DNA of 64,000 nt, taken from Naegleria gruberi (taxonomy: Eukaryota). The stretch lies in NCBI GenBank assembly GCA_000004985.1, contig GG738845.1. One strand, 5' to 3'. This document shows positions 23,627-64,000 of the stretch, piece by piece. The position numbers and the translations under genes were made by a program. The stretch's first letter is position 1, and each line of letters begins with the position of its first letter. The notes under the pieces were generated by a model. It saw only the letters and a list, made by a program, of their open reading frames with translations. It searched no databases and was not told where the DNA came from.

Positions 23627-26443
23627 ATGGGTTCAGCACTCTCAACTCGGTACCCCTCATCAGGCTCTGAAACATCATCATCTTCGGTAAACCACACCCC
23701 TCGAGAGAGTAGAGTGGTGGTTGTTGCCAAGAGAGCCAATTCAACTCCAAACCTTAAAAGCGACTTGAATGCTTCACCTACAAATTTTTCCTCATCAAAC
23801 AATGTGGCCAATAGTGCCACCACTGTTAATACCTCTCCAACATCTTCAATGAATAATAATATATCACCTTCAATGAATCAATTTAAATTTCCAAGACATG
23901 GAGCGAATGGTTCTCGGTCATCTTCATTCACGAGAAGCATTCATGGAGGTACAATATCAACAGCAACTTCTGCTGTACAGAATGCCAACTCTGGTTCATG
24001 CAATAACATCCCTTATTCAAACAATAATAATTTTGATACAACATCAATGGCATCTATTCAGCCATCAGTTATCACAACAAGTAATATAAAACTTCAAGCT
24101 CATGAATCTGCAATATCATTACTAAGGTTCAGTCCAGGTGTAGCAAGAACTCCATCGCCCGACAATACATCAGATGCTCTAAGCTCACCAAAATCTATTG
24201 AACAATTAGTCGATAATACCCACATTTTTACAACAAGTAATCCAAGTATCGTAAGTTCTATTGGAAATAATCAGTCTCCTTCCCCTCCTACATTAAGCTA
24301 TTCCAACACTCCAACAGGAACCACGATAAGTCCTTTTAATAGTGGAAGTTGTTCCACTCCTCCTGTTCCTTCTGTTTCCACCCCACCTACTGTCACCTCT
24401 ACTTCATTGCCTCCAATTCACCCTCAAACAATTTCTGGGTTTAATAGTGTTTCAAGTCCAAATAATGTCAATTCTGCCTCCAATACTGCCTCTCCAACTC
24501 ATTTCACATTTCCTTCACACACTCCAACTCTTTATCCCATTCAAACGGAGAGCAATTCTTTACCGAGTATTGACAGAGTATCTACTCCTAATAGATATAG
24601 GCATATTCCACCGAATGCTTTTGCAGCTTTTAATTCAAACAGAAGAGGATCAGTCACTAATCCTATTGTACCTGTTGCTATTGTTGAAAATAACAATTCA
24701 GGGACCTCACATTCAATTGAAGTGACCAATTCTTTTTCGTCTCTTTCACAATGGGGCGGAATTAATGAGGAAATTATTCTTCCTGAAACACAGAAAATGA
24801 ATGAATACAATAAGGAACTTAAAAAACAGGTTAAAAGCACCATTAGTCCAGAGGATTTAACTAGATTGGAAATTGGTGACAATAGCGATATTCTCATTCA
24901 AATGCTTCTTTATAATCCAATAGCAACAGTAATCACAGATTTGGACGGGAATATTATTGTGATGAACGAACCCTTTAAGCAACTATTCAGAGTGGATGAT
25001 CCAGAAACCATTACAAGCATTTCAATATTCATTCCTAAAGAATACAGAAAATTTCATGAAAAGATTCTTAGAAAATATAAGAAAAAGAACAGACCAAAGA
25101 TTAAGAGAGTAACGTTGGGATTAACACAATATGGTGACAAAATTCCAATATCCATATCAGTCACCTCTTCTGAGCTTCAAAGTTCTGGAAAACCTGTCTA
25201 TATTTGTTTTATCAAGGATCTTACAAGTGAATTCAAACTTAACACCCTAGACGTCATGTATCAAAATGTTACAGGACTTTCTTCTATTCCTATCATTGGT
25301 ATAGACCAAGATTGTAGAATTACATTATTTAATCATGCAGCCGAAGAGACTTGGATGATTAGTAAAACAGAGGTACTCGAAAATAATGTTAAAATTCTAA
25401 TGCCAGAGGCAACAGGAAAGGTGCATGACAAATTTGTGACTGAGTATATTATTGGTAAAAGAGAAAAATCAGTCATTGACAAAGTTAAGCAAGTCATTGG
25501 AAGAAGAGTTGGAAATGGCAAAGAATTCCCACTAGAAATTAAGGTGGCTGAGGTTAAGCACGAACTCAACAACAAGAGATCATTCGTTGCATTTTTAAGA
25601 GATTTAACAGCTGTCATGACTGCAAGAGAGTTTCAGTTGACTCTTTACCCAGAAAAAGTTGTAAATATGTTAGAGTCAGGAGAAAGAACTATTCACCATC
25701 ACCACACTTGTGCCAGTGTTTTGTTTTGTGATATTGTTGGTTTTACAGAAATATCTAGACAAATGGAAAGTAATGAATTGGTGATGATTTTGGATGAAAT
25801 TATTTCAATGTTCGACAATCATCTGTTAAGCAAATACAGAATTGAAAAGATTAAAACAATGGGTGACAATTATATGTGTGCAACTGGACTGGATGACAGT
25901 ACTGACCATGCGAATAATATTGTTGAGGCTGCTATTGAAATGCAAAAATTAATGCATGAATTTAATGAGAGACATGCCGAATTGAGACTTAGATTTCCAG
26001 ATCATTGCAACAATTTTGGACAAGTTATTTCTGTAAGAGTTGGTGTTAATTCGGGAGATTTAGTAGCAGGTATTGTTGGTAACAGAAAACCAGTTTATGA
26101 TGTTTTTGGAGATAATGTCAATCTTGCCTCAAGAATGGAAAGTTCAGGAATTGAATCACAAGTCCAAATCACTCCAAAAACATATAGCTTATTGAAAAAT
26201 GAATTGAAACAATATTTTACAATAAGAAGGGATAACAAGGTTAAAGGTATTGGTCTAATGGATACGTACATTACAAATCTCTCCCCCGAAAGTTTTGATA
26301 TGAAAAGTGCAAGAATTAATTCTCGTCACGCTCATCAAAACTCTGGAATACCTAATATTGGAGATATTGATGAGCATTCATTCTCTCTAACATCCACTTC
26401 CATTGAAGACGATATTGATGGAGTTGAACATTCGAATTTATAA
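23627..26443 (+). CDS. N-myristoylated PAS-PAS class III adenylyl cyclase (single CHD catalytic domain), 938 aa
   Basis: The N-terminus MGSALSTR carries the N-myristoylation consensus Gly2/Ser6. A long Ser/Thr/Pro/Asn-rich linker follows. There are two PAS-like segments (LIQMLLYNPIATVITDLDGNIIVMNEPFKQLF... and VTGLSSIPIIGIDQDCRITLFNHAAEETWMISKTEVLENN...). The cyclase domain reads TCASVLFCDIVGFTEISRQ...YRIEKIKTMGDNYMCATGL...VRVGVNSGDLVAGIVGNRKPVYDVFGDNVNLASRMESSG. The Lys in EKIKT and the Asp in YDVFG indicate ATP specificity. Confidence 0.8.
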   Translation: MGSALSTRYPSSGSETSSSSVNHTPRESRVVVVAKRANSTPNLKSDLNASPTNFSSSNNVANSATTVNTSPTSSMNNNISPSMNQFKFPRHGANGSRSSSFTRSIHGGTISTATSAVQNANSGSCNNIPYSNNNNFDTTSMASIQPSVITTSNIKLQAHESAISLLRFSPGVARTPSPDNTSDALSSPKSIEQLVDNTHIFTTSNPSIVSSIGNNQSPSPPTLSYSNTPTGTTISPFNSGSCSTPPVPSVSTPPTVTSTSLPPIHPQTISGFNSVSSPNNVNSASNTASPTHFTFPSHTPTLYPIQTESNSLPSIDRVSTPNRYRHIPPNAFAAFNSNRRGSVTNPIVPVAIVENNNSGTSHSIEVTNSFSSLSQWGGINEEIILPETQKMNEYNKELKKQVKSTISPEDLTRLEIGDNSDILIQMLLYNPIATVITDLDGNIIVMNEPFKQLFRVDDPETITSISIFIPKEYRKFHEKILRKYKKKNRPKIKRVTLGLTQYGDKIPISISVTSSELQSSGKPVYICFIKDLTSEFKLNTLDVMYQNVTGLSSIPIIGIDQDCRITLFNHAAEETWMISKTEVLENNVKILMPEATGKVHDKFVTEYIIGKREKSVIDKVKQVIGRRVGNGKEFPLEIKVAEVKHELNNKRSFVAFLRDLTAVMTAREFQLTLYPEKVVNMLESGERTIHHHHTCASVLFCDIVGFTEISRQMESNELVMILDEIISMFDNHLLSKYRIEKIKTMGDNYMCATGLDDSTDHANNIVEAAIEMQKLMHEFNERHAELRLRFPDHCNNFGQVISVRVGVNSGDLVAGIVGNRKPVYDVFGDNVNLASRMESSGIESQVQITPKTYSLLKNELKQYFTIRRDNKVKGIGLMDTYITNLSPESFDMKSARINSRHAHQNSGIPNIGDIDEHSFSLTSTSIEDDIDGVEHSNL

Positions 26444-48268: not shown

Positions 48269-51200
48269 TTAGTTGTGAATAATTTTGAATTTGTAATTGA
48301 TGCTCGATTCATCATGGTTCACCTTTTCACAATAGCACAAGAATTTCAAGTGGTGACCCAGTACTAATTCCCTTGCTTGTTTGAAAGTTTCTGAGCCAGT
48401 GACTGGAAGTTTCTTATTTGTTGTTGCTCCTTTCTTGTAGGCAAATATTTGCTGAATAGCTCTTGTATCCAGAGTCAATGTTACATGCTTTCCAACCTTT
48501 ACTTGGAATAGGAGGTCATGATCTGGTTTGGTAAATTTATGATTGCAATGGCCACATATTTGATCTGTATCCACAAACCAGGTTGAATCTGAAGTAAGTT
48601 GTTTTTGACAATGTGGACAAACAGGAACTGTTGGACGATCTCCAATTTCTAAAATGTCTGAAATATATCCTTCCACATTTCCAACACTTTTCTCAAAGCA
48701 AGTAAACTCATAATTAATAGAATTGAGAATGGATTGTGATTGAATCTTTCTTCCATTTTTCTTTAAAAATCCTTCTTCTACTCTCAATCTGACGCTGTAT
48801 GGGAATTTCACATCACTTGCTTGTTCCAATCCACTACTAGTGGAAGGATAAATCATTGAAAATTTGTCTGCTATTAATTGAGTAGACTCGTGCATATCCT
48901 CAGTTCTTTTTACCAATATATTGTGAATAGTTACATTTGTTCTATTGCTACTAAAACCATATGCGACAGCCAATAGCATGGATGTTTCTAACAATAGACT
49001 ATCCAATCGTAAAATGATATTAGAATGTTTCTGTAATACATAAACGGAAAACTTAGTGGTATTATCATGATTATTTTCGGCTATATAAATAATCTTTCCC
49101 TCAATGTCACATCTGTGTACTCTCGAGCTATTTTCATCATTCACTACGTCTTCAACACCTCCATGAGATTGTTGAGTATCTCCAGAAATTGGTTGATCGA
49201 AATTATAATACAAGCTATGTTTGTAGGAAGAATGAGGAGCAATATTTTCAGGAATTGGATCTACACCAATGACGGAGCCCATACTGAAATTATCTTCTGG
49301 AGGAATAAATTTACAAGAGGTGTGTTGTTTGTTTGTGGTAAAGAAATATACAGGAATGAGAGGATTGGTAAATTCGCTTGAATTAGAATAATTACTCAAT
49401 TGGGAATCAGTTGTAAGATTATGTTCAGTGTGATACATTGGTGAAACAATGGAATATAATTCATCATTTGGTCCAATATAAATTCTATCCTTAAATGAAC
49501 AAACATCAAATTGGAAAATTTTGCCTTGAGAAATGTTAGGGTCAAATATTGATTTCCAATAATCATATTCATGACTACCTGAAGGGAGTAAAATTACACA
49601 AAGACTTCTTGATTTGGAACATTGAATGAGAACACTGTTGGACATGTTTGATTCATTTGCAAGTTGAGGAATTCTATTGTAAATCTCATTAAAAGAGCTT
49701 TCCAATGTTTGTCTAATATAATCATAACTCCAAACACGTTGTATTACTCCCTGAATGTTAACATAATAAGATGGGAAGAAGGCTGAATGAAGTTGTTTGT
49801 AAATGATTTCAAACTTCTTTGTGAAAGGACCATTTGAAATTCTGGAAATTAAATGATAATTTCTTTCATAATCCTGTTCACTTTGGGATGAAAAGTCAAT
49901 TCTTCTTCTTGGAGTGTTGATAATATTCTTATGTCTGACATGGGTTGGAGTTGATCTAATACCTTGGGAAGTTCTTGGAGGAGTTGAAGGTGTTGCATTA
50001 TCATCACCTGTCAAGTCCATATTATCCTCATTGGAATCTTTAGAAAGCATTGGGAATGTAAATTTTGACTCTAGTTGTTCAATATCTTGTTTCAACTCGT
50101 TAACATCTGAAGATTGAGAATTACATTTCATTTCAAAAACGTAGGATATTACAGGTCTTGGTCTGAAAATCCAATCACTATTTGAATCATGGGGATCGCT
50201 AGATGGTGTAATGTGGAATAAATTTGTTGCAATTTCAATAATACTTCCAGGTTCTAAATTCCACTTGTCTCTCATTTCTCTTAAGAGGAATACATCAAAG
50301 AAATCATTTTCTTCCAAATTTTTTTGAAGTATTTCATTATCGTGAGGTTGGGTAGGTCTTTTTAACATTTTACAAATACATAGAGACAGATTCGGATAAA
50401 TTTGTGGTGAAGAACTGAAAACTAGAATTTTCAAAACCATACTGTCTTTTGGGGAGTTAGGTTGTGATAAAGTCATACCAGAACCAATATTGGCAAATAC
50501 TTTTTCATTCAAGCATCCATTAACTGCTCTAATAAGTTTAGAAACAAATCTACCTGATGATTTTACAGTTAGAATCTTCTTTAAATGTTCCCATTGTGAA
50601 AAGAATTGATCAGTACTATTTCCTGATGATGACTGTTGAGAAAGAGAAACTGTACGTTCAGCCACTGGTGGTGCCTTTGATTTTCTGAGTTTATCTAACC
50701 AACTTTCTCCAACAACATTATTATCATTTACAGTGTTATTTTCAGTCATGACATCATCTTCAATATCCTCGTCAGCTACTACTTTGGATTTTCTGTTGGA
50801 GAAGAGTAAATTTTCAACCTCACTTTCTCTTGGATTTCCAACTTTTTTCTTAATTCCCTTTAGTCTAGTTTCCAAATCAAATCCATCTTCTCCTGATATA
50901 ACGATATTATTATTCTTTGGTGGGGATATTTGTTTAGGTTGTTGTGGTGGAGGAGCACTTTTTTGAATTTGTTGAGGGGTTGAATAATTAATGGCAGAAA
51001 CCATTTGACTGAATTGTTTGTCTCTATTATTCATTGTTGTAGTATCTTCCTCTTCACTATCAGTAACAATTAAATCATCAATATCAATTGTTGGTTTTGA
51101 AGATGTCCTATTATTCATCACTTGTTTTTGTTGTGTTAAATAAGTTGAAATGAGTGCAGAATTATTAAGTGTAGCTTGAGGTGCACTTGCAAATAGTGCT

Positions 51201-52204
51201 GCATTCACTCCACTCAATACAGCCATTGTTGGTACTGGAATAGTTGGATTTGTTTCTTCATCTGAAAAATCGTCAATATCGTCATCTTTTTCAATTTCCT
51301 TTGGTATATGATAGGATATTGAATTATTTTGAGATTTTCTTTTTTGAGTTGGTGTTTTGTGAGGTGTAGAACTATAATAGTGTGATGAAGATTTTCTTGT
51401 ACTGGCAGATGAATTATACGAGAAAGAAGGAGGAACAATAGTCTTCTCTAGAGATGGAATTATTCCTTTGTTCAATGGTTGTGACATTTGAGAAGATGTT
51501 GTAGATTTGGTTTGAGATTCCTCATCGTAATTCATATCATTATCCTCATCTGATGAAGAATAATAAATTCCTGAAATTTTTTCTGGAATTGATTTCTTTG
51601 TAATTTTTCTCTTTTTTGGTGAGGTTGATCCCTTCTTTTTCTTGTTAGATTTGTTGGATGATTTGTTTAGACTAAGTGAAACACTTGGTTCATCGAAATA
51701 TTTATCAAAATCATCGTCACTAATCACTTCATCCTCTACTACTTTGGAATTTTTCTTAGGTGTTGGTTGTTTCTTCTTTCCAATCGGTAAACTCATATTA
51801 ACTTCATCATCTTGACTTTCTCTCATAGAAGATGAGGAAGATTTCTTCTTATCAAAAACAGCAGACAAGACAGCATTGCTTTCCTCTGGACTCACATCAA
51901 TTCCAGTCTTGTTTGCATTATCTTCATTTTGTGAATCCTCATAGAATGATTGTGAATCTTGTTGTTGCTTTCCATAAATTTTGGAAAATTTTGTTGGTTT
52001 GTAAGTAATTTCTTCATCAGAATCCGAAGATGATTCTCCACGAAATTGTATTCCTCCACCTCTTCCAACAACATTATTTCCTCTAGGTATTTGTTTTGAA
52101 AGGAGTGCAAGCTGTTTTTGCTCTGCATTTTGTCCTCCAGAGAGTGGTGTCCTAATGGAAACCTTGTTAGTATTCAATGGTGCGTTATTTCTAACTTTCC
52201 ACAT
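48269..52204 (-). CDS. Large (1311 aa) Ser-rich protein with a C-terminal OB-fold-like domain carrying a C4 zinc ribbon (RPA70 DBD-C-like). The candidate class is a ssDNA-binding scaffold (CTC1/RADX/RPA1-like)
   Basis: Intron-free minus ORF. The N-terminal 800 aa are low-complexity S/D/E/K-rich. The C-terminal region has CPHCQKQLTSDSTWFVDTDQICGHCNHKF (C-x2-C-x17-C-x2-C) embedded in beta-rich sequence. The function is inferred weakly. Confidence 0.35.
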   Translation of the reverse strand: MWKVRNNAPLNTNKVSIRTPLSGGQNAEQKQLALLSKQIPRGNNVVGRGGGIQFRGESSSDSDEEITYKPTKFSKIYGKQQQDSQSFYEDSQNEDNANKTGIDVSPEESNAVLSAVFDKKKSSSSSMRESQDDEVNMSLPIGKKKQPTPKKNSKVVEDEVISDDDFDKYFDEPSVSLSLNKSSNKSNKKKKGSTSPKKRKITKKSIPEKISGIYYSSSDEDNDMNYDEESQTKSTTSSQMSQPLNKGIIPSLEKTIVPPSFSYNSSASTRKSSSHYYSSTPHKTPTQKRKSQNNSISYHIPKEIEKDDDIDDFSDEETNPTIPVPTMAVLSGVNAALFASAPQATLNNSALISTYLTQQKQVMNNRTSSKPTIDIDDLIVTDSEEEDTTTMNNRDKQFSQMVSAINYSTPQQIQKSAPPPQQPKQISPPKNNNIVISGEDGFDLETRLKGIKKKVGNPRESEVENLLFSNRKSKVVADEDIEDDVMTENNTVNDNNVVGESWLDKLRKSKAPPVAERTVSLSQQSSSGNSTDQFFSQWEHLKKILTVKSSGRFVSKLIRAVNGCLNEKVFANIGSGMTLSQPNSPKDSMVLKILVFSSSPQIYPNLSLCICKMLKRPTQPHDNEILQKNLEENDFFDVFLLREMRDKWNLEPGSIIEIATNLFHITPSSDPHDSNSDWIFRPRPVISYVFEMKCNSQSSDVNELKQDIEQLESKFTFPMLSKDSNEDNMDLTGDDNATPSTPPRTSQGIRSTPTHVRHKNIINTPRRRIDFSSQSEQDYERNYHLISRISNGPFTKKFEIIYKQLHSAFFPSYYVNIQGVIQRVWSYDYIRQTLESSFNEIYNRIPQLANESNMSNSVLIQCSKSRSLCVILLPSGSHEYDYWKSIFDPNISQGKIFQFDVCSFKDRIYIGPNDELYSIVSPMYHTEHNLTTDSQLSNYSNSSEFTNPLIPVYFFTTNKQHTSCKFIPPEDNFSMGSVIGVDPIPENIAPHSSYKHSLYYNFDQPISGDTQQSHGGVEDVVNDENSSRVHRCDIEGKIIYIAENNHDNTTKFSVYVLQKHSNIILRLDSLLLETSMLLAVAYGFSSNRTNVTIHNILVKRTEDMHESTQLIADKFSMIYPSTSSGLEQASDVKFPYSVRLRVEEGFLKKNGRKIQSQSILNSINYEFTCFEKSVGNVEGYISDILEIGDRPTVPVCPHCQKQLTSDSTWFVDTDQICGHCNHKFTKPDHDLLFQVKVGKHVTLTLDTRAIQQIFAYKKGATTNKKLPVTGSETFKQARELVLGHHLKFLCYCEKVNHDESSINYKFKIIHN

Positions 52205-53622
52205 TTTCCTAGGATTTATTTGATGATAATAGAAGGCAAAAAGTAGCCTAAAAAGTTGAATTTATATTATTTGATGATCAAAAATATTTAATTTTGTGTG
52301 ATGAAGTAAATGTATGATCTCTGTGGTTGTTGATTTTTTTTTAATGATGAAAATTTTTCAACTTGGGGCTGGAAAACATGTGTTTGAAAAATCCAGAAAA
52401 ACAAGGAATCTTAAATGACCAACAATATTTTACCAGATAAGAATCAATCATGACTGGCCAAATTATTCGAAATTTTAAACTTTTCTTCTTAAGGTGGCGG
52501 TAGGGTCTTCCAAAAATATTCCTTCAATGAAAAAAAAAATGTTTGCAATGAAATACAATTTTGCTCCTTTACATTCTCATTGAACAAGCAATTATAAGCC
52601 ATCTTCGATTCATCTTTTATTCTACTTGCCTGTTTGATGTCTAATACTCTTCAAGTTTTTATACATCAATTTTCTATCATCATCACAAATATTTAATTTT
52701 TGTTATTTATAATTTGAATGCAGGGTTACTGTGCCAGTTTCACCTAGTTTCACTCATCAGAGAATACACACGATCCAACTACAAGTTGTCTATCTAATGA
52801 ATTGGTTCCGAGATGTTTGCTAATGCTTTGATTGTGATTTTGAGCAAAGTTTTGGCTGTTTTGAAATAAGCAAACAACAAAATAATCACAAAAAAAATGA
52901 AAAGAGGGTTGTGTTTTGGTGTGGGAGTAAAATAAGTTGTTTTGTCACCAAGATTCTATAATGTAAAGAATGGATTTGTTGGTAAAGTTCCTATTCACCA
53001 CAAGGAACTGAATGGCACTATTTGTTGTCTACATTACAAGCAATTTATTGACAAATATTATGAAATGGAGAAAAAATTCACAAACTCAAACTTAGGAACA
53101 ATTCAAACAGTACAACAAAATACCTCTACTCCAAATCAATGTTATCATTCCATGTACATTCCGAAAAAGCTATTACAACTCTGGTACCTTCGACCAACAA
53201 GTGTACTAATAACAAGAAAGTTTGAATTGTGTTCATAAATGATTTTTTATTAAAATTACTAAATTTGCCATTTTGCCAATAATAGATATTCGAATATTTG
53301 TAAACCAACATTTGCACTTCCAATTAAAATAGGCGAACCGCCACCTTAATTCTTTCTTTCAATAAGAAACAATTAATATTATTTAACTGGAAATTGTTTA
53401 AAAAAAATGAGCAGTTTAGTTTTTAACTATGGTAATACTTTTGTCAATGTGCCTCCCCAACAACAAATGTTGCTACAATTAATTTGACTGGATTATTGTC
53501 GAGTATTCTTCCATCATCAACAACTTTACAAAATTCGTTAATTATGATCCGAACCAACACTCAAGCTGAACAACCGTCAACACGCACGAAGTTAGCTTTT
53601 GTGTATTAATATTATTACATTT

Positions 53623-54189
53623 TTATTGGATGATCGTAAAAACTTCAATTTCAGTAACTTTGAAAGTATTAGTGCCTGCCAAGTAGGTGTTAGCTTTAAA
53701 GCTTTGAGGTTCCATTCCACAAGGTAATTCATAGGTTGTACCAAAATTGGAAAAAGACTTTGAGTTCCTATTACAATCATCAGCAATATATATGTCATGA
53801 TTTCCAAAGGTTGGAAGATAGTGTGGATGATTGTAAATGGCTTGTTGTTTTTGGTCTTGTTTGACATTGAATTTTGTAATATGATAACTTCCATTCAATT
53901 TTTCAAGCTTGAAAAGAAATGCTGCATCGTCACAAGCAAACTCATAATTTGATTTCCAATTTTGAGATGAAAAACCTCCAAATATTTTTCCAAATTCGGA
54001 CTTGATAATTGTTAAGGTTGCTCCTTGATTATCACATTTTTCATGGAAGATTTCAGAACTGAATCCATCTTCACTTGCTCTGAATAATAATTTTGGAGTT
54101 TGTTGGCTCTTCGTGAAGGTAGATAATTCGAGACCAACATTTTCAATGGAAGAAAGAATTTGTGAGGAAACAAAGTGGTTTGGTTGCAT
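53623..54189 (-). CDS. TLDc-domain protein (188 aa)
   Basis: LLFRASEDGFSSEIFHEKCDNQGATLTIIKSEFGKIFGGFSSQNWKS...DDAAFLFKL...HDIYIADDCN matches the TLDc pattern LLYRGSRDGFSAxAFHxxCDGKGPTLTLIK...GxxFGGY...W...DxxSFLFSL. Confidence 0.55.
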   Translation of the reverse strand: MQPNHFVSSQILSSIENVGLELSTFTKSQQTPKLLFRASEDGFSSEIFHEKCDNQGATLTIIKSEFGKIFGGFSSQNWKSNYEFACDDAAFLFKLEKLNGSYHITKFNVKQDQKQQAIYNHPHYLPTFGNHDIYIADDCNRNSKSFSNFGTTYELPCGMEPQSFKANTYLAGTNTFKVTEIEVFTIIQ

Positions 54190-54315
54190 TTTTTATTGAA
54201 AATATTTTGTTGAAGGAAAAAGCTCAATTAAGGGAATAATGGAACAAAAAAAACTCAACAAGTTCGATTAGCATTGTTCTTCTTAAACCAGAAATTAGCA
54301 AGTAAATAGTGAAGG

Positions 54316-55553
54316 ATGGTTTTGAATCAAACTCATGAACATGGTGATTTAACTGACAAGAACAAGCTATTGAATCAGGAATCACCAACTAGTTATAATC
54401 CTTCTCCTAATAGTTATTATTCCAACCCTTCGGACCCATATTTACATCAGCAAGGGAGCTTGGAAAATGTAAGTTGAAAGAGTTGATTAATATCTTTCTC
54501 TGACTATTATAATAGGTTAAACAACACAATAGCAATGATGAGGAAAAGATATGTCGTTGTTGTCATGGAGTTTTAACAAGTAATGATGATTATATTTCTC
54601 CGTGCAAATGTACAGGTTCCATGAAGTTTGTTCATCGTTATTGTTTGGTATGTTTTTCAATTATCTCATATGTTAACTAGGCTTAGGATCAATGGAGAAC
54701 AGTGAGTCCAAAAGCAACATCTTTCTATCAGTGTGATATTTGCTCACATCCTTATGATATCAAAGATGTGGATGAGAATGGTAGGGTTTTAGATGAAACA
54801 GAAGTGAAAGAACAAGGTTGTGGTTATAAACCTAAATCAATACTCAAGTTTGGCACATTAGTAACTCTTGACTTTTCAATCATTCTAATTGTTTGGCAAG
54901 TATTGGTATTATTATGTGCTGGTTTCTTTGCTTTGTGTGATTATGATTATGGATTGAGAGCTAAATTGTTTGGTCTGGATATGAATATATATCTGGTTAC
55001 CTATATGTAAGTATATTAGAAATTTGAGGAAATGGATTAATAGTTCAATAATAGTTGTGGATTGGTAATGTTCTTCTTCATTATGGGCATGTTAGGATTG
55101 TGCTGTACTGGAATTGTTATCTTGAACAAGATGATGAATGACACCTTCTGTGGGAATTGTTTAACTAATGACCACTATTACTCTCATAATACATACCCAT
55201 ACTATGGCAGAAGGCACTCCAGACGTTCAGCTTTGTACCATTGGTACTGTTTTTGGCCATCCTTGTATGGTCGTCCAATATATGGTAGTTCTCCACATTG
55301 TTTCCCATTCGGTTGCTTTAATTGTGGAACTGGTTTTTCTGGAAATTGTGGAAAATGTGGTGATTGTAAAGGAGAAGGTGTATTGATTGTTCTTGTTATC
55401 ATTGTTCTTGCAGTGGCTATTGTAGGATTAGTGTTTGGTATGATTCTTATGGGATTGCTAGGCTATAGAATATTTTCTAGAAGAATTTCCGTTTTGAAAA
55501 AGAAAGACCAAGCTAAGTATCAACAAATTCAAAATTACTGGCCTCTTCCTTAA
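54316..55553 (+). CDS. RING-CH (MARCH-type) E3 ubiquitin ligase with a C-terminal TM anchor. Exons 54316..54468, 54516..54647, 54687..55006, 55055..55553. Introns 47, 39 and 48 nt
   Basis: Exon 2 gives EKICRCCHGVLTSNDDYISPCKCTGSMKFVHRYCL. Exon 3 continues DQWRTVSPKATSFYQCDICSHPYD, completing the C4HC3 RING-CH signature. The donors are GTAAGT, GTATGT and GTAAGT. The acceptors are TAATAG, GCTTAG and AATAG. Exon 4 carries a Cys/Gly/Tyr-rich segment and a TM helix (VLIVLVIIVLAVAIVGLVFGMILMGLLGY). Exons 3 and 4 are ORF-track pieces 54702..55010 and 55062..55553. Confidence 0.7.
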
Positions 55554-56707
55554 ATCCTTAAATTTCATCAATAGCATAAATAATAGACATTATAATCTCT
55601 TATTACTAGTTAAAATTAGTTATTAGAGTAAAGATGATATTAAACATGTGACGTTATAATTAACATGTTCGATATATAGGTTTGAATTTTAACAACTTCA
55701 ATAACTTCAGATTCCTCAATTTAAGTACCACTTCCAACATGGAAGTGTGCACATGCATGCTAGTTGCACTGATGGTAATTATTGGCGATACATGTTGATA
55801 TGCAATATCAGAAATAATGATGGATGTGTTCACATGCTCGTTACACAACCAAATTTGTTGAAACTTAGTGAGAAGTAAATGCATGCAGTGCTAAAACTAT
55901 ATGGCAATGAATTGTGAATGTAGACATGTGAGACATGTTCCAACTCGTGAGATTAACATGTTGATAAGGCAAATGCTCGGTTGTTGATTAGTTAGATCTG
56001 CCTTAGCAAAGCGCCACAGTCATTACCTTTAGCGTGTGGTAACCACATCCGTATTCATCATTCCTATTACTGTTGATCTTATTAATATTCCTACATTAGT
56101 GTTTGTATCCGAGAGTTCAAAAAGCAACCTCAACTTGTTGTGAGGGAAAATATGGCTGCATGTGGTAGCGAACAGAACCATAATGGATTTGTACGGGGTA
56201 ATCTCTTCACTACAAATTAGTACAAATAATTGAGGAATTGTGTGTGCACAAAGATCAATTTTGCTCCATGCTCCTCCACTAGCTCTTGCTGTATGCTGTT
56301 TGACTTTGTTCAAAACTTGGACACATGATTCTAATAGAAGCTAACCACCAAGTTGATCCTTTTCTTTTTGACATTTTCTCACAACAAAAGCATATCAATC
56401 AAGGGAATGTTCTCACCAATCATACCATTATTTTAAACTTTTATTACTGTAAGTACATGGGAGTGAGAAAAAAACACGTTCTTGTGCTCGGCCAAATTTA
56501 ACCCTTACATTCTATTTAAGGGAGATGAAAAACGTTGTTTCCACCGCGAACTACAAATTTCGTAGGTACAAAATGAACTTTTTACTGAAAAATTTCCAAA
56601 TGAGGAATGATACCACAGTGTTTTTACAATATTCTGTTGTGGTGTGCGCTTTAAGAGGCTGCTATCCATGTGAAAGTTGCAAAGATTCGAAACAAAAAAA
56701 CAACAAC

Positions 56708-59700
56708 ATGAGGATAAGAAATTATTGCTTCATTGTAATTGCCTTACTGCTACTTTGTTCAGGGGTGATTTTGGTGCGAGGTTTGTCATGCTCAAAAGAA
56801 GAAGATTGTGCTGATTCTTCAGGTTCTTGTATCAATGGAAAATGTGAGTGTTGGAATAACCATAAGACAGGTGATTATTGTGATGTATGCATTAGAGGTT
56901 ACGTTGGTGCCAATTGTGAAGATTGTGCCGCTGGTTTTACAAAAGACCCACAAGATGGGTCAACATGCTTGGCCAATTGTAATCCAGCTTGTTATAGAGG
57001 TGATTGTGTTGGCACTAATCTTTGTGAATGCAATACAGGTTGGGATGGAGCCACATGCAATGTTTGTGCTAAAGGATATAGTGGTACAGATGCTTTTGGC
57101 AATCTTTTATGCGACGTAAAAACCTGTGTTCCTGGATGTGGTTATCATGGAAAATGTGATGTTCCTCCAAGTACTTGTAAGTGTGATTATGGTTGGGAAG
57201 GGGCTGTTTGTAATATCCCTCAATGTTATGGAAACTATGCCTGTGGTAATAACTCATATTGTTCATCCGCTTTCGAATGCTCATGTGTTGAAGGTTATAA
57301 CCAAACTGCAGCTGGTTGTGTGCCAAATGTTTATAATTGTCCTGTACCATGTGGAGATCATATGAAATGTAACTCTTCATTACTTTGTGCATGTGAACAA
57401 GGTTATGATAGTATCAATGGTGCTTGTTACAAAACATGTCCTTCTAATAGTGTTAGATCTGGAACTGATTGTGTTTGTGTTGCAGGATATTCCTTAAATA
57501 ATGGTGTATGTGAAAAAGAATGTAAAGACTGTACCAATGGAGTTTGCTCCAATGGAGTTTGTACATGTAATGATGGTTTTGAAAAGAAGGGAGAGTATTG
57601 TTACAAGCCATGTTCAGTATTTACTGGAACAGTTGGTGCTACTTGTGCTATTGGTGGTATTTGTAAAGCTAATGGTCCATTCTTCTCCTGTTCGTGTTCA
57701 GAATCTGGTAAAGAAGAGTTTAATGGAGTTTGCAGAACACCTTGCAATCCTGCTTGTGGTGAAAATACTGAATGTAATGAGAATTCAATTTGTCAATGCA
57801 AATCAACACTCGATCAAGATAAATATTCATTCGATAATGCAACCAGAAAGTGTTATCCAAATTGTACCAAATGCAAATTGGAACATCAAACATGTAACAA
57901 TCCAGATGATGCAAATTGTTTCTGTGACAGAGTGAGAGGTTATTTACCAATTTATGATTCCAATGGAGTTGTCATTTCCTGTGAAAAACCATGCAATCCT
58001 GCTTGTATGGGATATTCACACTGTGTTAATGGTGATCATTGTGAATGTGATACTGGTTATACCAATTATGGAAATGAATATGGTTGTGTGAAAACCTGCA
58101 CATCAGCTTGTATTGGTTTGAGTTGGTGTAGTGACGCTATTTGTTATTGTCCTTCTGGATATCAACAACATAGTAATTCAACAAGTATTTGGTGTGAACC
58201 TGTTTGTTCAACTCCATGTGGTGCTAACATGGAATGTAGTGCTCCAGACAATTGTACTTGTAAAGCTGGATATGAAGTGATTGGAAGTGAATGTATCAAA
58301 TTATGTCCTTCTAATAGTGTTAGATCTGGAACTGATTGTGTTTGTGTTGCAGGATATTCTTTAAATAATGGTGTATGTGAAAAAGAATGTTCTCCAGAAT
58401 GTACCAATGGAGTTTGCTCCAATGGAGTTTGTACATGTAATGATGGTTTTGAAAAGAAGGGAGCTTACTGTTACAAGCCATGTTCAGGATTTACTGGAAC
58501 AGTTGGTGCTCCTTGTGCTGCTGGTGGTATTTGTAAAGCTAATGGTCCATTCTTCTCTTGTTCGTGTTCAGAATCTGGTAAAGAAGAGTTTAATGGAGTT
58601 TGCAGAACACCTTGCAATCCTGCTTGTGGTGAAAATGCTGAATGTAATGAGAATTCAATTTGTCAATGTAAATCAAATCTCGATCAAGCTAAATACTCAT
58701 TCGATAATGCAACCAGAAAGTGTTATCCAAATTGTACTAAATGCAAATTGGAACATCAAACATGTAACAATCCAGATGATGCAAATTGTTTCTGTGACAG
58801 AGTTAGAGGTTATTTACCAATTTATGATTCCAATGGTGTTGTCATTTCCTGTGAAAAACCATGTAATCCTGCTTGTATGGGATATTCACACTGTGTTAAT
58901 GGTGATCATTGTGAATGTGATACTGGTTATACTGATTATGGAAATGAATATGGTTGCGTGAAAACCTGCACATCAGCTTGTATTGGTTTGAGTTGGTGTA
59001 GTGACGCTATTTGTTATTGTCCTTCTGGATATCAACAACATAGTAATTCAACAAGTATTTGGTGTGAACCTGTTTGCTCCACTCCATGTGGTATTAATAA
59101 GCAATGTAGTGCTCCAGAAGAGTGTTCATGCAAGATTGGCTTTGATGACGTGAAAGAGGTGTGTGTTGAATCTTGCCAAGTAGGTTACTCGAGAGCCGAA
59201 GATGATGATAAGTGCTATGCCGATTGTAAAGTCTGTGGAGCTCACTCTTCTTGCTATCACTCTGAATGCGTTTGTGATTTGGGTTATCAAGTAGATGCTA
59301 GAGGTGATTGTTCTTCAGTTGTCCATGACAATAGCACAGGGAATACTACTGCAGGTAATAGTTCTACTTCTGGTGGCTGTGATCCAATATGTAATCCAAC
59401 AACTAGTTCCTGTCTGGATGGAGCTTGTATTTGTAAAGACAATTTGGAAATGATTGGTGGTGAGTGCGTTCATGTTTGTTCTTTAGATTGTGGTATTCAT
59501 GGAATTTGTCAAAATACCACAGGCAGTGCAACTTGTAACTGTACTGATTTCTTTGAAGGAATGGCATGTTCCACCTGCAAGAGTGGTTTTTCATTGATTA
59601 ATGACCGATGTGTATGTGATGATTCTTCAGGTCGTGCTTTGGTGGGTGAGAATTGTATCTGTAACTCTGTAGCCTCGTTTAAACAAGTTGGTACAGAGTG

Positions 59701-62700
59701 CGTTCGTTCTGAACCAAATTGTAGATATGGATGTGGTAATGGATTGTGTAGATTTGTGAATAATGTTACTTCAGACACTGAGTGTGTGTGTTCAGCTGGT
59801 TTCATTTCTACCAATCAATCCAATTGTAATGATTGTGATAGCAATCAAGGCTTGATTCTCTCCAATGGTTTGTGTGTATGCAATGTTAGACTTGGTTTCA
59901 GATTATCAACAATAGATGGGAAATGTAAAATTTCCACACCAATTTGTGCTGACAAATGTGGTAATGGTGAATGTCAATTCGTTGATTCCACAACTGATTT
60001 GGCAGAATGTAAATGTAATGTAGGTTATATGACTGTTCGTGGCTCTGGAAAGATGTGTTCCGAATGTGCAACAGGATACTCACTTTCAAATGGTGTTTGT
60101 AAACTCATTTGTCCTGAAGAATATTCTGGAGATGACTGTTCTACGTATACTCCAACATCTGCTTGTGTGAATCCACCATCAAACTCTCTTTCTTTCTGTA
60201 AATCTGTTGTCTCTTATCAGGTGAAAAATACCTTATATATCCAAGGAGCTCAAAGCCCATCCCAAGCCAAGGAAATGTTCTTTACCAACATGAAATCAGT
60301 AGATGAGGCTGCTAGTAATATCCTCTCTCAAGTATTGAATGAATTTGCAAAACAAAACATGTCTTGTGATTCCAATTGTATTGCTGTATCAACCAAATCC
60401 ATTTGTTACCAATACATTAGTTCATGTTCTGTTGATAATTCCAATGTTGCAGTTGAAAAGAAGCTCTGTAAAAGTGTTTGCAATTACATTTTGAATAATG
60501 AAGTTGTGACTTATCCTGATGTTTATGCTAATAGTTGTAATAGATTACCAGAGACAAATTGTTTTTATGGTACTTATTTGCCTCCAGCCACCAGCTGTTT
60601 TGGAGTTCCTTACTTGAATTCTTCAGTTTGTTCTGGAAAAGGACGTTGTGTCGATACTGACTCTTGTTCATGTAATCAAGGGTTTACAGGTAGAAACTGC
60701 CAACTCCCATTCTGTTTTAACATAGATAGCTCTGACCGTTTGGTTTGCTCATCCAATGGTGAGTGTGTTGGAGTTAACAAGTGTAATTGTAAATCTGGTT
60801 TCACTGGTAAAGACTGTTCTATCATTAATTGTAATGGAAAGAGTGAAGCTGAAGGAGGATGCTCATTCCATGGACAATGTTCTGCTGAGCACAAGTGTGT
60901 TTGTTCTGGTAACTTTGTTGGTGCTTCATGTTCAGAATGTGCAACAGGATTCACTGGAGTAAATTGTGATATTCCAATTTGTAATGGTATCAAAGCTAAT
61001 GATAAGACAGTGTGTAGCTCAAGAGGATCATGTATTGTTGATGGTGGTGAGCCAAAATGTTCTTGCTCCTCAGGATATAGTGGAACCAGTTGCCAAAACT
61101 TTAAATGTAATGATATTGACAGATCTAGTTCAGATGCTTGCTCCAAACATGGTAAATGTATAGCACAAAACACCTGTGTTTGTGCTGGTAATTTCGATCC
61201 GCTGAGATATTGTTCCACTTGTACACCTGCTTTCAATGGAACTGATTGTACAGAGAGAATTTGTTCAGATGAGTTGACTTGTAGTGCCCATGGTAAATGT
61301 AATTCCAATTTCAAGTGTGACTGTCAAGGAAACTGGGTTGGTGATTTCTGTAACCAATGTAAAGATGGATTCGTTGGAACTAATTGTCAATTTGAATGCT
61401 CACCATCAACAAAGTGTAGTGGTAGAGGATCATGCAACATGGATGGAACTTGTCAATGTACTGGAAATAGTATTGGAAAAAATTGTGAACAATGTGCAAC
61501 AGGATGGTTTGGAGCAAAATGTGACTTTTCCATTGATTCCACAAGCTTTGGATTCTCTAGTAAGGGAGATTCTTTATATGGAACTGTTTATTCCAACCTT
61601 AAAAAGAAATTTGCTTGTTCTGACCTTGTAACAACAACTGATATTCTTGGAATTGGTGCTGTATGTGTTTTGAATCCTGAAAAGAGTTCCATGGAAATTA
61701 TTTTAGGTCTCTCTGCATCCGTTAAAATTGGTAGTACTTTACAATTCAAGAAATATTTCGATTCACTTGAAACAACTCAAGTCACAATTTCAACTAAGGA
61801 TTATGTGGCAGTTTCACCACTCGCAAACTTGATTTCAGATAAGCCAAGCGTATCCAAAGCTTGTGGAAAAGTATACTTGGATGCTTCATCATCTGTTTCA
61901 ATAGATCGTAGAACTTTGCTCTTCTCGTGGTCAAATATTTTAGCTCCAACAACACATGATGCAGATACTTTGAATGCATTCCTTTCTTCAGTTACATCTT
62001 CTGGTGTTTATATTGGAGGTGCTGATTTGAGCGTAGGTTCTTACTCAGTCCAAGTAACTGTAACAAGCTCATTCTCTCTTGAAAAATCAACTTCTACCGT
62101 TTCTTTTGATGTATCTGATTTGACATCCCCAACTGTGGCTATTAAGGAAGGTCTTGAGAGTAGTATAATCATTGGTAAAAGTTCCGTCATTACACCAACT
62201 GTAACTTTCCCTTCTTGTTATAAGGGAGAGGGACCAATTAGTTATGTCTATACTTTGGATACCACAAAATCCATAAATGTTGATGTAAAACAAAAGGGTG
62301 AATTATTGATATTTAATGATGATTATACTAAAATAACTGAAGAGGGTGATTATTACTTTATTTTGACCACAACTCAAAAAGGAGCTGCTGATGTTAAGGT
62401 ACCATTCAAAGTTACAGCCAAAGCACTTCCACTTGTTGTTTCTTTCAGTGTTCGTGACATGGTTCAATCTTTTGAAAATGATGTAACTTTCACAATCATC
62501 ACTCGTGACCCAAGCAATCCAAGTAATCCTGGAGGAGATGTTGTCTTGTCATGCACCAATCTTGACACTGCCACAACTTGTGATGGATTTTCAAATTCTG
62601 CAAGTAATATTAATCAAACTACTCGCAGTTTCAAACAAGGAATGCAACCAGGAACTTATATGTTCACAGCAACCTATACTAAGGGATCTAGAAAGTCTCA

Positions 62701-64000
62701 ATCTTCTGTAAAAGTCACACTTTTGGACAAACCAAAATCAACAATTATTAGAGTGTTAGTTTCCCCTCCTAGGAGTGCTGATTTGACAGCAGTTGATCCT
62801 TCTACTGAACTAGTTCTTCAAGCTACAACAATGGATACATTGAGTTCAGATAGAGTCTTTACTTGGAGCTCTCCTGATATTGACCTTACCTCAATTACCA
62901 CTTCCAACAAGTATATTGTAATTCCAAAGAGCTCTCTCGTTCCAGGAACTTCCAATACTGTTAAAGTTAAGATTGTAGATGGCACTAGATCTGGAGAGGC
63001 TGAAATTTCTTTCTCTGTTAACTCTCCTCCAACACAAGGTATTTTAGAAGTCACACCATCCACAGGTATTGCTTTATCTGATGAATTCCAAATTAAGTGT
63101 GGAAATGGTTGGTACGATGTTCAACTTCCTTTATCTTTCAAATTCATGTACAAGGAAGAAAATCAAACAAATTGGAAAACTCTATCAGAACAATCAGAGA
63201 AGAGATCCTTGGCAACATCCTTACCATTTGGTGTGTTGCAAATCAAAGCCATTGTTTACGACTCATTGGGAGCATCGACTGAAGCAATCACTACAGTAAC
63301 CACTATACTTCCAGATGCTGGAGCAGTCCTGAGCATTTTAACCTCACAACAAGGGACAGTCACTGTTTCAACACTTGCTTCTGCTCTCAGTGTTGTTGGA
63401 TCAGTTACGGGATTGACTACAGATCAAAAAGCAGCAATGCAAGAGGCCAGTAAGACTTTTGTTAACAAGTACTTTGAACAACAATCTCAAAAAGACAGTT
63501 TGCTTGAAGAATCATCTTCCTCTGCCTCATCTAAACTTTCAGTTATTTCTTCTATCAGTAATTTTGTAAAAAATCTCCCTGATGAGACTGTTTCAATGGT
63601 TATTCAAAAATTCTCTAAAACTATGGGTTCTGCTTCTACTAGTTCCTCAATTAGTATGGGTAGTGACGATATTTCCTCATCAACCAAGTCAGCAAACTCT
63701 CTCAGAGAACACGTTACTCAAAACATGGCTAAGAGATTTATTTCTTCCTTCACCAAGAATGATTTGAAGACGATTGACGATGTTTATGCCAGTCTTGTTA
63801 GCATTCAAGTTAAATCTTCTGTCGCTGATATGCCAGCCACTAGAGGAGAGGGTGTGGACTCAAACACTTATGCAAGACTTGTCAGTATTCCAACTTTGAA
63901 TGGATTGTCAGAATTGGTTAAGGATCAGGGTGTCTCTTCATTCAAACTTTCATCAACATTTGGTGATAATTCCAAGATTAAGAGTTTAGATAGTGTTAAA
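56708..64000 (+). CDS. Giant secreted EGF/laminin-EGF-repeat protein (over 2430 aa inside the window, 3' end beyond the window). Signal peptide, about 45 Cys-rich EGF-like modules, then a Cys-poor beta-rich region with a REJ/PKD-like character
   Basis: The ATG at 56708-56710 gives MRIRNYCFIVIALLLLCSGVILVRG (a signal peptide). The frame then stays open to the window end. Repeated CxxxxCxNGxCxCxxGxxGxxC modules are typical of tenascin/laminin-type EGF. From about 61500 the sequence switches to S/T/V-rich beta-strand repeats with recurring LLFSWSN / VFTWSSPD motifs. The gene is absent from the ORF track because no stop codon occurs before position 64000. Confidence 0.8.
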   Translation, partial: MRIRNYCFIVIALLLLCSGVILVRGLSCSKEEDCADSSGSCINGKCECWNNHKTGDYCDVCIRGYVGANCEDCAAGFTKDPQDGSTCLANCNPACYRGDCVGTNLCECNTGWDGATCNVCAKGYSGTDAFGNLLCDVKTCVPGCGYHGKCDVPPSTCKCDYGWEGAVCNIPQCYGNYACGNNSYCSSAFECSCVEGYNQTAAGCVPNVYNCPVPCGDHMKCNSSLLCACEQGYDSINGACYKTCPSNSVRSGTDCVCVAGYSLNNGVCEKECKDCTNGVCSNGVCTCNDGFEKKGEYCYKPCSVFTGTVGATCAIGGICKANGPFFSCSCSESGKEEFNGVCRTPCNPACGENTECNENSICQCKSTLDQDKYSFDNATRKCYPNCTKCKLEHQTCNNPDDANCFCDRVRGYLPIYDSNGVVISCEKPCNPACMGYSHCVNGDHCECDTGYTNYGNEYGCVKTCTSACIGLSWCSDAICYCPSGYQQHSNSTSIWCEPVCSTPCGANMECSAPDNCTCKAGYEVIGSECIKLCPSNSVRSGTDCVCVAGYSLNNGVCEKECSPECTNGVCSNGVCTCNDGFEKKGAYCYKPCSGFTGTVGAPCAAGGICKANGPFFSCSCSESGKEEFNGVCRTPCNPACGENAECNENSICQCKSNLDQAKYSFDNATRKCYPNCTKCKLEHQTCNNPDDANCFCDRVRGYLPIYDSNGVVISCEKPCNPACMGYSHCVNGDHCECDTGYTDYGNEYGCVKTCTSACIGLSWCSDAICYCPSGYQQHSNSTSIWCEPVCSTPCGINKQCSAPEECSCKIGFDDVKEVCVESCQVGYSRAEDDDKCYADCKVCGAHSSCYHSECVCDLGYQVDARGDCSSVVHDNSTGNTTAGNSSTSGGCDPICNPTTSSCLDGACICKDNLEMIGGECVHVCSLDCGIHGICQNTTGSATCNCTDFFEGMACSTCKSGFSLINDRCVCDDSSGRALVGENCICNSVASFKQVGTECVRSEPNCRYGCGNGLCRFVNNVTSDTECVCSAGFISTNQSNCNDCDSNQGLILSNGLCVCNVRLGFRLSTIDGKCKISTPICADKCGNGECQFVDSTTDLAECKCNVGYMTVRGSGKMCSECATGYSLSNGVCKLICPEEYSGDDCSTYTPTSACVNPPSNSLSFCKSVVSYQVKNTLYIQGAQSPSQAKEMFFTNMKSVDEAASNILSQVLNEFAKQNMSCDSNCIAVSTKSICYQYISSCSVDNSNVAVEKKLCKSVCNYILNNEVVTYPDVYANSCNRLPETNCFYGTYLPPATSCFGVPYLNSSVCSGKGRCVDTDSCSCNQGFTGRNCQLPFCFNIDSSDRLVCSSNGECVGVNKCNCKSGFTGKDCSIINCNGKSEAEGGCSFHGQCSAEHKCVCSGNFVGASCSECATGFTGVNCDIPICNGIKANDKTVCSSRGSCIVDGGEPKCSCSSGYSGTSCQNFKCNDIDRSSSDACSKHGKCIAQNTCVCAGNFDPLRYCSTCTPAFNGTDCTERICSDELTCSAHGKCNSNFKCDCQGNWVGDFCNQCKDGFVGTNCQFECSPSTKCSGRGSCNMDGTCQCTGNSIGKNCEQCATGWFGAKCDFSIDSTSFGFSSKGDSLYGTVYSNLKKKFACSDLVTTTDILGIGAVCVLNPEKSSMEIILGLSASVKIGSTLQFKKYFDSLETTQVTISTKDYVAVSPLANLISDKPSVSKACGKVYLDASSSVSIDRRTLLFSWSNILAPTTHDADTLNAFLSSVTSSGVYIGGADLSVGSYSVQVTVTSSFSLEKSTSTVSFDVSDLTSPTVAIKEGLESSIIIGKSSVITPTVTFPSCYKGEGPISYVYTLDTTKSINVDVKQKGELLIFNDDYTKITEEGDYYFILTTTQKGAADVKVPFKVTAKALPLVVSFSVRDMVQSFENDVTFTIITRDPSNPSNPGGDVVLSCTNLDTATTCDGFSNSASNINQTTRSFKQGMQPGTYMFTATYTKGSRKSQSSVKVTLLDKPKSTIIRVLVSPPRSADLTAVDPSTELVLQATTMDTLSSDRVFTWSSPDIDLTSITTSNKYIVIPKSSLVPGTSNTVKVKIVDGTRSGEAEISFSVNSPPTQGILEVTPSTGIALSDEFQIKCGNGWYDVQLPLSFKFMYKEENQTNWKTLSEQSEKRSLATSLPFGVLQIKAIVYDSLGASTEAITTVTTILPDAGAVLSILTSQQGTVTVSTLASALSVVGSVTGLTTDQKAAMQEASKTFVNKYFEQQSQKDSLLEESSSSASSKLSVISSISNFVKNLPDETVSMVIQKFSKTMGSASTSSSISMGSDDISSSTKSANSLREHVTQNMAKRFISSFTKNDLKTIDDVYASLVSIQVKSSVADMPATRGEGVDSNTYARLVSIPTLNGLSELVKDQGVSSFKLSSTFGDNSKIKSLDSVK
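57436..59170 (+). repeat. Near-identical tandem duplication (2 x about 867 bp, over 95% identity) inside the EGF-repeat gene. It duplicates a block of about 8 EGF modules (289 aa)
   Basis: Copy 1 starts tgtccttctaatagtgttagatctggaactgattgtgtttgtgttgcaggatattcc at 57436. Copy 2 starts with the identical string at 58304. The ORF-track shadow ORFs 57501..57935 and 58368..58961 (MVYVKKNV...PMEFAPMEFVHVMMVLKRRE...) are the same out-of-frame reading of the two copies. They are offset by 867 nt, with a 3-nt indel (KDC versus SPEC). Confidence 0.8.

Follow-up and report, generated by a model that had tools for sequence, protein, structure and literature searches.

A giant EGF-repeat protein of Naegleria gruberi with a predicted REJ-GAIN module on a single membrane anchor

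Thinking about GAIN domains has centred mostly on self-cleavage and the tethered agonist. These domains are described as a hallmark of adhesion G-protein-coupled receptors (GPCRs) and of polycystin-1 (PMC9672506). Sea-urchin suREJ1 (SpREJ1) combines extracellular EGF and REJ (receptor for egg jelly) modules with one transmembrane (TM) segment and a short tail, and has no polycystin channel body (PMC10855541; PMC9672506); this one-TM REJ protein binds an extracellular polysaccharide ligand (PMC10855541). Here we analysed a 64,000-nucleotide (nt) stretch of the Naegleria gruberi genome (contig GG738845.1; hereafter the window, numbered from its first letter), whose plus strand holds, from position 56708 to its end, most of the gene NAEGRDRAFT_45249. 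The product is a type I membrane glycoprotein with a single membrane anchor, and we read it, with a probability of roughly 0.6, as a giant single-pass EGF-REJ-GAIN surface protein in which the cassette stands on a plain anchor without a 7-TM or 11-TM body, and which likely serves as an adhesion or recognition receptor.

By layout, the closest analogue of this protein is the single-pass suREJ1, but without lectin modules: the 1996 work of Moy et al. reportedly described C-type lectin modules and a single EGF module in suREJ1, and the window-encoded protein gives no Pfam Lectin_C match at E values up to 1. The Naegleria protein is set apart from suREJ1 by some 37 EGF modules and a probable Frizzled-type cysteine-rich domain (CRD); the sequence similarity between the two is limited to the REJ profile, and the host is a heterolobosean amoeboflagellate, not an animal. 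With the polycystin-1 family (PKD1, PKD1L1-3, PKDREJ and suREJ3) it shares a large adhesive ectodomain in which PKD-type Ig-like domains precede a REJ module that is followed directly by a predicted membrane-adjacent GAIN domain, but it lacks the H-L-T/S triad, the PLAT domain and the channel-like C-terminal half of that family, and has one TM segment against eleven. It differs from adhesion GPCRs (ADGRE5/CD97, CELSR1, BAI3, ADGRG6, latrophilin) in having no 7-TM domain, and without such a receptor body tethered-agonist logic is impossible; its GPS is degenerate and keeps only two of the usual cysteines.

The reading frame opened by the ATG at 56708 runs free of stops for 2431 codons, up to base 64000, as expected from the earlier claim of a single frame of more than 7.2 kb. 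At the regional base composition (A 29%, T 33%, G 21%, C 17%) stops are expected at 6.9% of codons and the chance of such a run is about 10^-76; each of the remaining five frames holds 75-317 stops across 56708-64000. The closest in-frame stop upstream lies at 56450, and three in-frame ATGs 3' of it (56525, 56573 and 56600) are left unused by the annotated model, XP_002683274.1, which starts at the same ATG, 56708. When the distal 867 residues of the window protein (1565-2431) were used as a HMMER query against 1.84 billion representative proteins, 423 relatives were recovered, the best of which, aligned at residues 1565-2431, was P0008 (EFC50530.1 / XP_002683274.1 / D2UYS4_NAEGR), the 2628-residue product of N. 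gruberi NAEGRDRAFT_45249. The window translation is identical to residues 1-2431 of this protein (100% identity, zero mismatches), and therefore the gene is already annotated, as 'predicted protein' or 'uncharacterized protein' in GenBank, and is colinear with the genome, without an intron, to codon 2431; it encodes an uncharacterised member of the known REJ/GAIN ectodomain proteins. The window thus holds the single-exon 5' 93% of the gene, and 197 residues (up to 594 nt) lie beyond it. The first-pass annotation, made from the DNA letters and a program-made list of open reading frames (ORFs), had called the gene invisible to that list. Only out-of-frame fragments are indeed listed, but the cause is the window edge: frames running off the window are omitted, an artefact and not biology.

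The protein opens with a predicted signal peptide (residues 1-25, MRIRNYCFIVIALLLLCSGVILVRG; 56708..56782), as had been proposed; this is the only strongly hydrophobic stretch, and holds the sole hydrophobic 19-mer, of the window-encoded part. A first EGF-like array (residues 26-1130; 56783..60097) contains 171 cysteines, at 13-17 per 100 residues, in about 28 six-cysteine modules with EGF signature motifs, and a second array of teneurin/tenascin type (residues 1301-1606; 60608..61525) contains 49 cysteines in about eight modules. Together they account for 220 of the 234 cysteines in residues 26-1606, that is about 37 modules (28.5 + 8.2), and a motif search found 17 strict EGF signatures across them. 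Pfam matches were obtained for EGF_TEN (73.6 bits, cut-off 65; best stretch residues 1306-1409) and, in the second array, for EGF_Teneurin (28.3 bits, cut-off 24.3), EGF_2 (26.1 bits, cut-off 22.1) and EGF. These matches and the six-cysteine periodicity support the view of a giant EGF-repeat protein; the figure of about 45 modules given by the first-pass annotation is too high by the cysteine count. Cysteine density stays at 13-18 per 100 residues to about residue 1600 and then drops to 0-3, with serine plus threonine rising to 22-32%.

The first array contains a tandem duplication of a block of eight EGF modules, at 57440-58306 (residues 245-533) and 58307-59176 (residues 534-823). The two blocks, of 289 and 290 residues, are near-identical in protein alignment and 93-95% identical in DNA with a period of 867-870 nt, the lengths differing by one in-frame codon (a one-residue insertion or deletion). 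The duplication is recent. The copy number of the block might vary between strains. Neither this duplication nor the cysteine-rich insert described next had been listed before.

Between the two arrays sits a non-EGF, cysteine-rich and partly helical insert of 170 residues (1131-1300; 60098..60607) with 14 cysteines, which is probably, though not established to be, a Frizzled-type CRD. The spacing C-x8-C-x6-C-x13-C-x3-C resembles that of Frizzled-type CRDs, and the sole match of an insert profile among PDB sequences was the CRD of ROR2, a weak one (E 0.5). Compared with the CRDs of MuSK, ROR2, sFRP and Frizzled, the insert gives no Pfam Fz match over residues 1131-1300, has a longer helical segment between the second and third cysteines, and yields a structural model of low confidence. 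It is kept in only three relatives (P0009, P0013 and P0031). Naegleria is not known to have a Wnt pathway.

The cysteine-poor, serine/threonine-rich region noticed earlier from about 61500 begins at residue 1607 (nt 61526), and its REJ-like character is genuine: Pfam REJ (PF02010) matches residues 1963-2207 (62594..63328; profile positions 154-420 of 452) with 121.8 bits against a cut-off of 25 (E 3.9e-35, or 2.1e-36 on the sub-fragment alone). The motifs quoted for this region are present as RRTLLFSWS (residues 1735-1743) and RVFTWSSPD (residues 2049-2057). For structure prediction, the distal region (about 1000 residues) of 16 family members was aligned (alignment A1), and the AlphaFold2 (AF2) model of residues 1600-2628 reached a predicted local distance difference test score (pLDDT) of 80.5 and a predicted template-modelling score (pTM) of 0.71. 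In model numbering, to which 1599 is added to obtain protein numbering, residues 1-601 contain strands only, which we read as six beta sandwiches; they are followed by seven helices (605-770), about 13 strands (779-933), a disordered segment (938-985) and one long helix (984-1015), the TM segment. The REJ module would accordingly span residues 1607-2200 (61526..63307) as six PKD/FN3-like beta-sandwich domains. The model agrees with the REJ region of polycystin-1, in which FN3-like folds are succeeded by a GAIN domain (PMC9672506; PMC3677617). The whole REJ-GAIN module is 25-54% identical over its length among the aligned family members.

Next to the TM segment, residues 2204-2532 are predicted to form a GAIN fold, with a seven-helix bundle as subdomain A (residues 2204-2370; 63317..63817) and a 13-strand beta sandwich as subdomain B (residues 2378-2532), of which the window holds the start (63839..64000). 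A GAIN fold after the REJ module, as in polycystin-1, is supported both by the AF2 model and by profile-profile comparison: the post-REJ profile of the Naegleria family (A3) aligned by hhalign with that of relatives carrying a canonical GPS (A4) over 286 columns, with a probability of 96.7% and an E value of 3.4e-10. A hidden Markov model (HMM) of the GAIN-like region searched against the collected relatives recovered the Naegleria-type family and P0079 only, without the canonical-GPS relatives. In these distant relatives a canonical GPS (C-x-Y-W-N..W..G-C..C-x-C-N-H-L-T-D-F) stands directly before the first TM segment; they comprise metagenome proteins with many TM segments (P0033, P0034, P0036, P0038, P0039 and P0044, of which P0039 has a Pfam GPS match) and with one (P0030, P0037 and P0040).

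The GPS of the polycystin-1 family contains an H-L-T/S autoproteolysis triad and conserved tryptophan and cysteines, and the cleavage chemistry requires threonine, serine or cysteine as the nucleophile at the third position (PMC9672506). The hhalign alignment places I-S-V-Q-S-T-G-S-Y of the Naegleria family opposite C-A-C-N-H-L-T-D-F, with S2522-T2523-G2524 in the H-L-T positions. Of the canonical GPS cysteines, the first two have their counterparts in C2492 and C2506; the C-x-C pair has been lost, and the NAEGRDRAFT_45249 protein also lacks the tryptophan. Both cysteines and G2524 are invariant in 16 of 16 aligned family members. With an invariant glycine at the nucleophile position, self-cleavage is very unlikely, as judged from the sequence, and since S-T-G replaces the lost triad the protein probably remains in one piece.

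The part beyond the window comprises the GPS residues C2492, C2506 and S2522-T2523-G2524, a 49-residue stalk that is 65% serine, threonine or proline (residues 2536-2584), a TM helix at about residues 2585-2610 and an 18-residue tail (residues 2611-2628). Besides the signal peptide the protein has a single strong hydrophobic segment, at residue 2586 (YIALILLIIPVVLVVVGIIGLTVWL), which is followed by KKKK. The basic tail MKKKKNSNKDTNLVELRSV (tail peptide KKKKNSNKDTNLVELRSV) ends in a conserved hydrophobic-Glu-Leu motif, whose usual form near the C-terminus is N-x-V-E-L-R; tails are otherwise dissimilar between relatives, and the motif may serve in sorting or adaptor binding. Pfam searches of the full-length protein and of the window part gave no PLAT and no PKD_channel match, and the 18 residues after the TM helix are too few for a PLAT domain or additional helices. 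The product is a type I membrane protein with one TM segment near its C-terminus, and not a secreted one as the first-pass annotation had it.

Accession look-ups placed this protein in a Naegleria-wide family, with at least 11 paralogues in N. gruberi among those checked (including NAEGRDRAFT_76453, _74497, _49279, _31787, _52311 and _68543), members in N. lovaniensis (C9374_000695) and N. fowleri (FDP41_001861 and FDP41_005856), and metagenome homologues. An EGF - REJ - GAIN(S/R-T-G) cassette of about 930-950 residues is common to the paralogues, which are 25-54% identical across it but differ in the number of EGF modules and in their anchors, which are a TM segment with a basic tail, a terminal hydrophobic signal resembling that for glycosylphosphatidylinositol (GPI) attachment, or a TM segment with a protein kinase. 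At least nine close paralogues or orthologues share the single-anchor ending; P0010, P0011, P0012, P0020 and P0021 end like NAEGRDRAFT_45249, with a TM segment and tail, while P0013-P0017, P0022, P0024, P0026 and P0001 end in a GPI-signal-like hydrophobic segment after a serine/threonine-rich stretch. P0027 (NAEGRDRAFT_66049) joins the EGF-REJ cassette to NHL repeats, one TM segment and a protein kinase. In the metagenome relative P0033, the EGF-REJ cassette and canonical GPS are accompanied by several TM segments with a RhoGAP domain between them.

The metagenome homologue P0001, 35% identical, lies on a 4.1-kb contig on which its ORF ends in the hydrophobic tail. About 200 nt past the ORF, TTTGGG-type telomere-like repeats (3876-4112) run to the contig end, and that member is therefore probably subtelomeric. 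Truncation of P0001 by its contig is excluded, as the hydrophobic tail ends the ORF before the repeats.

The order of parts in the protein would thus be a signal peptide, about 28 EGF modules, a probable Frizzled-type CRD, about eight teneurin-type EGF modules, REJ, GAIN, a stalk that is probably O-glycosylated on its serine/threonine/proline-rich sequence, a TM helix and a tail. While this architecture rests on the evidence above, it is from domain content that we infer ligand binding, location and signalling. The protein may form a long, rod-like adhesion or recognition receptor on the amoeba surface, with the EGF arrays and the cysteine-rich domain binding substrate, prey or other cells. 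Close to the membrane, REJ and GAIN would act as a rigid base, with the GAIN domain uncleaved and structural instead of an agonist-exposing device, and through its short tail motif the protein may engage a cytosolic factor for sorting or signalling. In function, suREJ1 offers the closest precedent, as a REJ protein with one TM segment and an extracellular polysaccharide as its ligand.

Several points weigh against the reading as an EGF-REJ-GAIN adhesion receptor. The adhesion function follows generically from EGF, PKD and GAIN content, and the basis of the GAIN assignment is predicted structure plus profile-profile homology. Pfam GPS has no match in the NAEGRDRAFT_45249 protein, and a family profile of the post-REJ region found no GAIN protein among PDB sequences, with chance matches to antibody light chains at E > 0.1. 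The last 197 residues come from an automated public gene model and lie outside the window DNA. The tail motif, [VILFM]-E-[LM], occurs in 16 of 24 single-pass short-tailed relatives, against a mean of 1.2 and a maximum of 6 in 2000 sets of shuffled tails, a statistic that ignores kinship among the sequences and is not a clean probability. In the literature searched there was no mention of NAEGRDRAFT_45249 or of the paralogue tags queried, nor of Naegleria together with a REJ domain.

Two other explanations of the locus deserve very little credence. The first-pass annotation had raised the prospect of a PKD1-like ciliary or adhesion receptor, should TM, GPS and PLAT parts follow beyond the window; in full, this reading would be a polycystin-type receptor-channel subunit that is cleaved at its GPS and has a PLAT domain and eleven TM helices encoded downstream. 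In favour of it, REJ and GAIN otherwise occur typically in polycystin-1 family proteins (PMC9672506), and the six many-TM metagenome relatives named above do join EGF, REJ and a canonical GPS to 7-9 hydrophobic segments. The 197 residues beyond the window contradict this reading, which we now regard as scarcely credible: the full-length protein has just 2628 residues and ends in one TM helix and an 18-residue tail, with no PLAT or PKD_channel match. Of the expected downstream parts, a TM segment is present, but as a single helix, and a GPS is present, but degenerate, with S-T-G in place of the triad. The same single anchor closes the nine or more close paralogues and orthologues, and the conserved tail motif comes right at the end of the chain, where distant single-pass relatives also have it, which argues that the stop codon is genuine. 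A similarly slim chance attaches to the view that this is no functional gene but an artefact of annotation or assembly, be it a pseudogene or a repeat that was collapsed or expanded. The near-identical internal duplication of 870 nt could in principle be an assembly error; however, between the repeat copies there is 5-7% divergence along with a frame-keeping 3-nt insertion or deletion, the stop-free run of 2431 codons has a chance probability of about 1e-76, and the protein is conserved domain by domain in N. gruberi paralogues, N. lovaniensis, N. fowleri and metagenomes. We take the artefact to be excluded by this evidence.

Two functional alternatives are improbable, to a similar degree, although less so than the preceding ones. 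The protein might be the ligand-binding partner, acting in trans, of a distinct channel of the polycystin-2/TRP type, and in flagellates this might take place on the flagellum. suREJ1, which shares the layout of REJ and one TM segment, triggers ion fluxes on ligand binding (PMC10855541), action in trans has been proposed for sea-urchin REJ proteins, PKD2-like channels take part in mechanosensing in other protists (PMC7935092), and N. gruberi builds flagella and has a gene for an RPGRIP1-type C2 protein in the window. Against this, no channel partner was identified, literature searches for Naegleria with polycystin or PKD2 returned incidental mentions only, there is no sign of flagellar targeting in a protein whose tail has only 18 residues, and the existence of GPI-like and kinase-linked members is easier to reconcile with an ectodomain cassette of general use than with a subunit dedicated to a channel. 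The other alternative, a structural glycoprotein of the surface coat, matrix or cyst wall that is only transiently anchored, is shed when proteolysis cuts the stalk and has no receptor role, would suit a very large repetitive ectodomain with 22 N-x-S/T sites and a stalk so rich in serine, threonine and proline. A recent internal duplication that points to length variation, a multigene family with GPI-like members that resembles surface-coat families, and a homologue (P0001) adjoining telomere-like repeats also speak for it. Such a role sits poorly, however, with the cytoplasmic motif conserved in distant relatives and with the kinase-linked paralogue, which together indicate that the anchor end matters, and the 25-54% identity of GAIN and REJ along their full length exceeds what a spacer needs.

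Beyond the adhesion or recognition receptor that we favour for the single protein, a broader proposal can be made, and we put it forward as tentative and more doubtful. The REJ-GAIN unit might be an ancient free-standing ectodomain module, independent of 7-TM and 11-TM bodies, that has expanded in Naegleria into a family with an uncleavable GAIN domain (invariant glycine in place of the nucleophile) on single-pass, GPI or kinase anchors, in which the single-pass members would signal through the hydrophobic-Glu-Leu motif.

The surroundings of the gene are eukaryotic. Three of the ORFs nearby match exactly the N. gruberi NEG-M proteins NAEGRDRAFT_45237, _45247 and _29369, encoded on a 1.56-Mb scaffold; the first encodes a PAS-PAS-adenylate/guanylate cyclase (23627-26443, plus strand). 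Neighbouring ORFs also encode actin, Misato, ELYS, a Rad51-like ATPase, a carrier of the triose-phosphate-transporter type, Hop2 and a rhomboid protein, and with actin, ELYS, Misato and Hop2 as neighbours a prokaryotic or viral origin is ruled out. The RPGRIP1-type C2 protein, of the ciliary transition zone, is encoded at 4514-6220 on the minus strand. Directly upstream of NAEGRDRAFT_45249, 4.5 kb (52205-56707) are devoid of long ORFs, which is unusual in an otherwise gene-dense window. This interval contains a 188-residue ORF with a TLDc domain (53623-54189, minus strand; E 1e-27) and two adjacent plus-strand ORFs with hydrophobic segments and no Pfam match (54702-55010 and 55062-55553), possibly exons of one gene. 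It is preceded by an intron-free ORF of 1311 residues without a Pfam domain (48269-52204, minus strand), whose N-terminal half is serine-rich and of low complexity and which has a Cys-x2-Cys...Cys-x2-Cys motif (CPHCQK...CGHCNH) near its C-terminus.

That an early-branching amoeboflagellate carries a well-conserved REJ-GAIN unit, apparently uncleavable, on simple anchors suggests that the cassette can be a plain structural or adhesive base, one that is freely joined to varied anchors: a TM segment, a GPI-like signal or a kinase, and multiple TM segments in relatives. Of specialist interest are the invariant glycine of the GPS, the variety of anchors within one genus and the possible Frizzled-type CRD in a discoban. 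The family provides candidate surface adhesion molecules, previously unstudied, in N. gruberi and, through orthologous members, in the pathogen N. fowleri. If true, the free-standing-module reading and the Frizzled-type CRD would together put several building blocks of 'metazoan' adhesion-receptor signalling in a discoban protist, and the family would offer a natural cleavage-dead GAIN system in which to ask what roles GAIN domains have beyond exposure of a tethered agonist.

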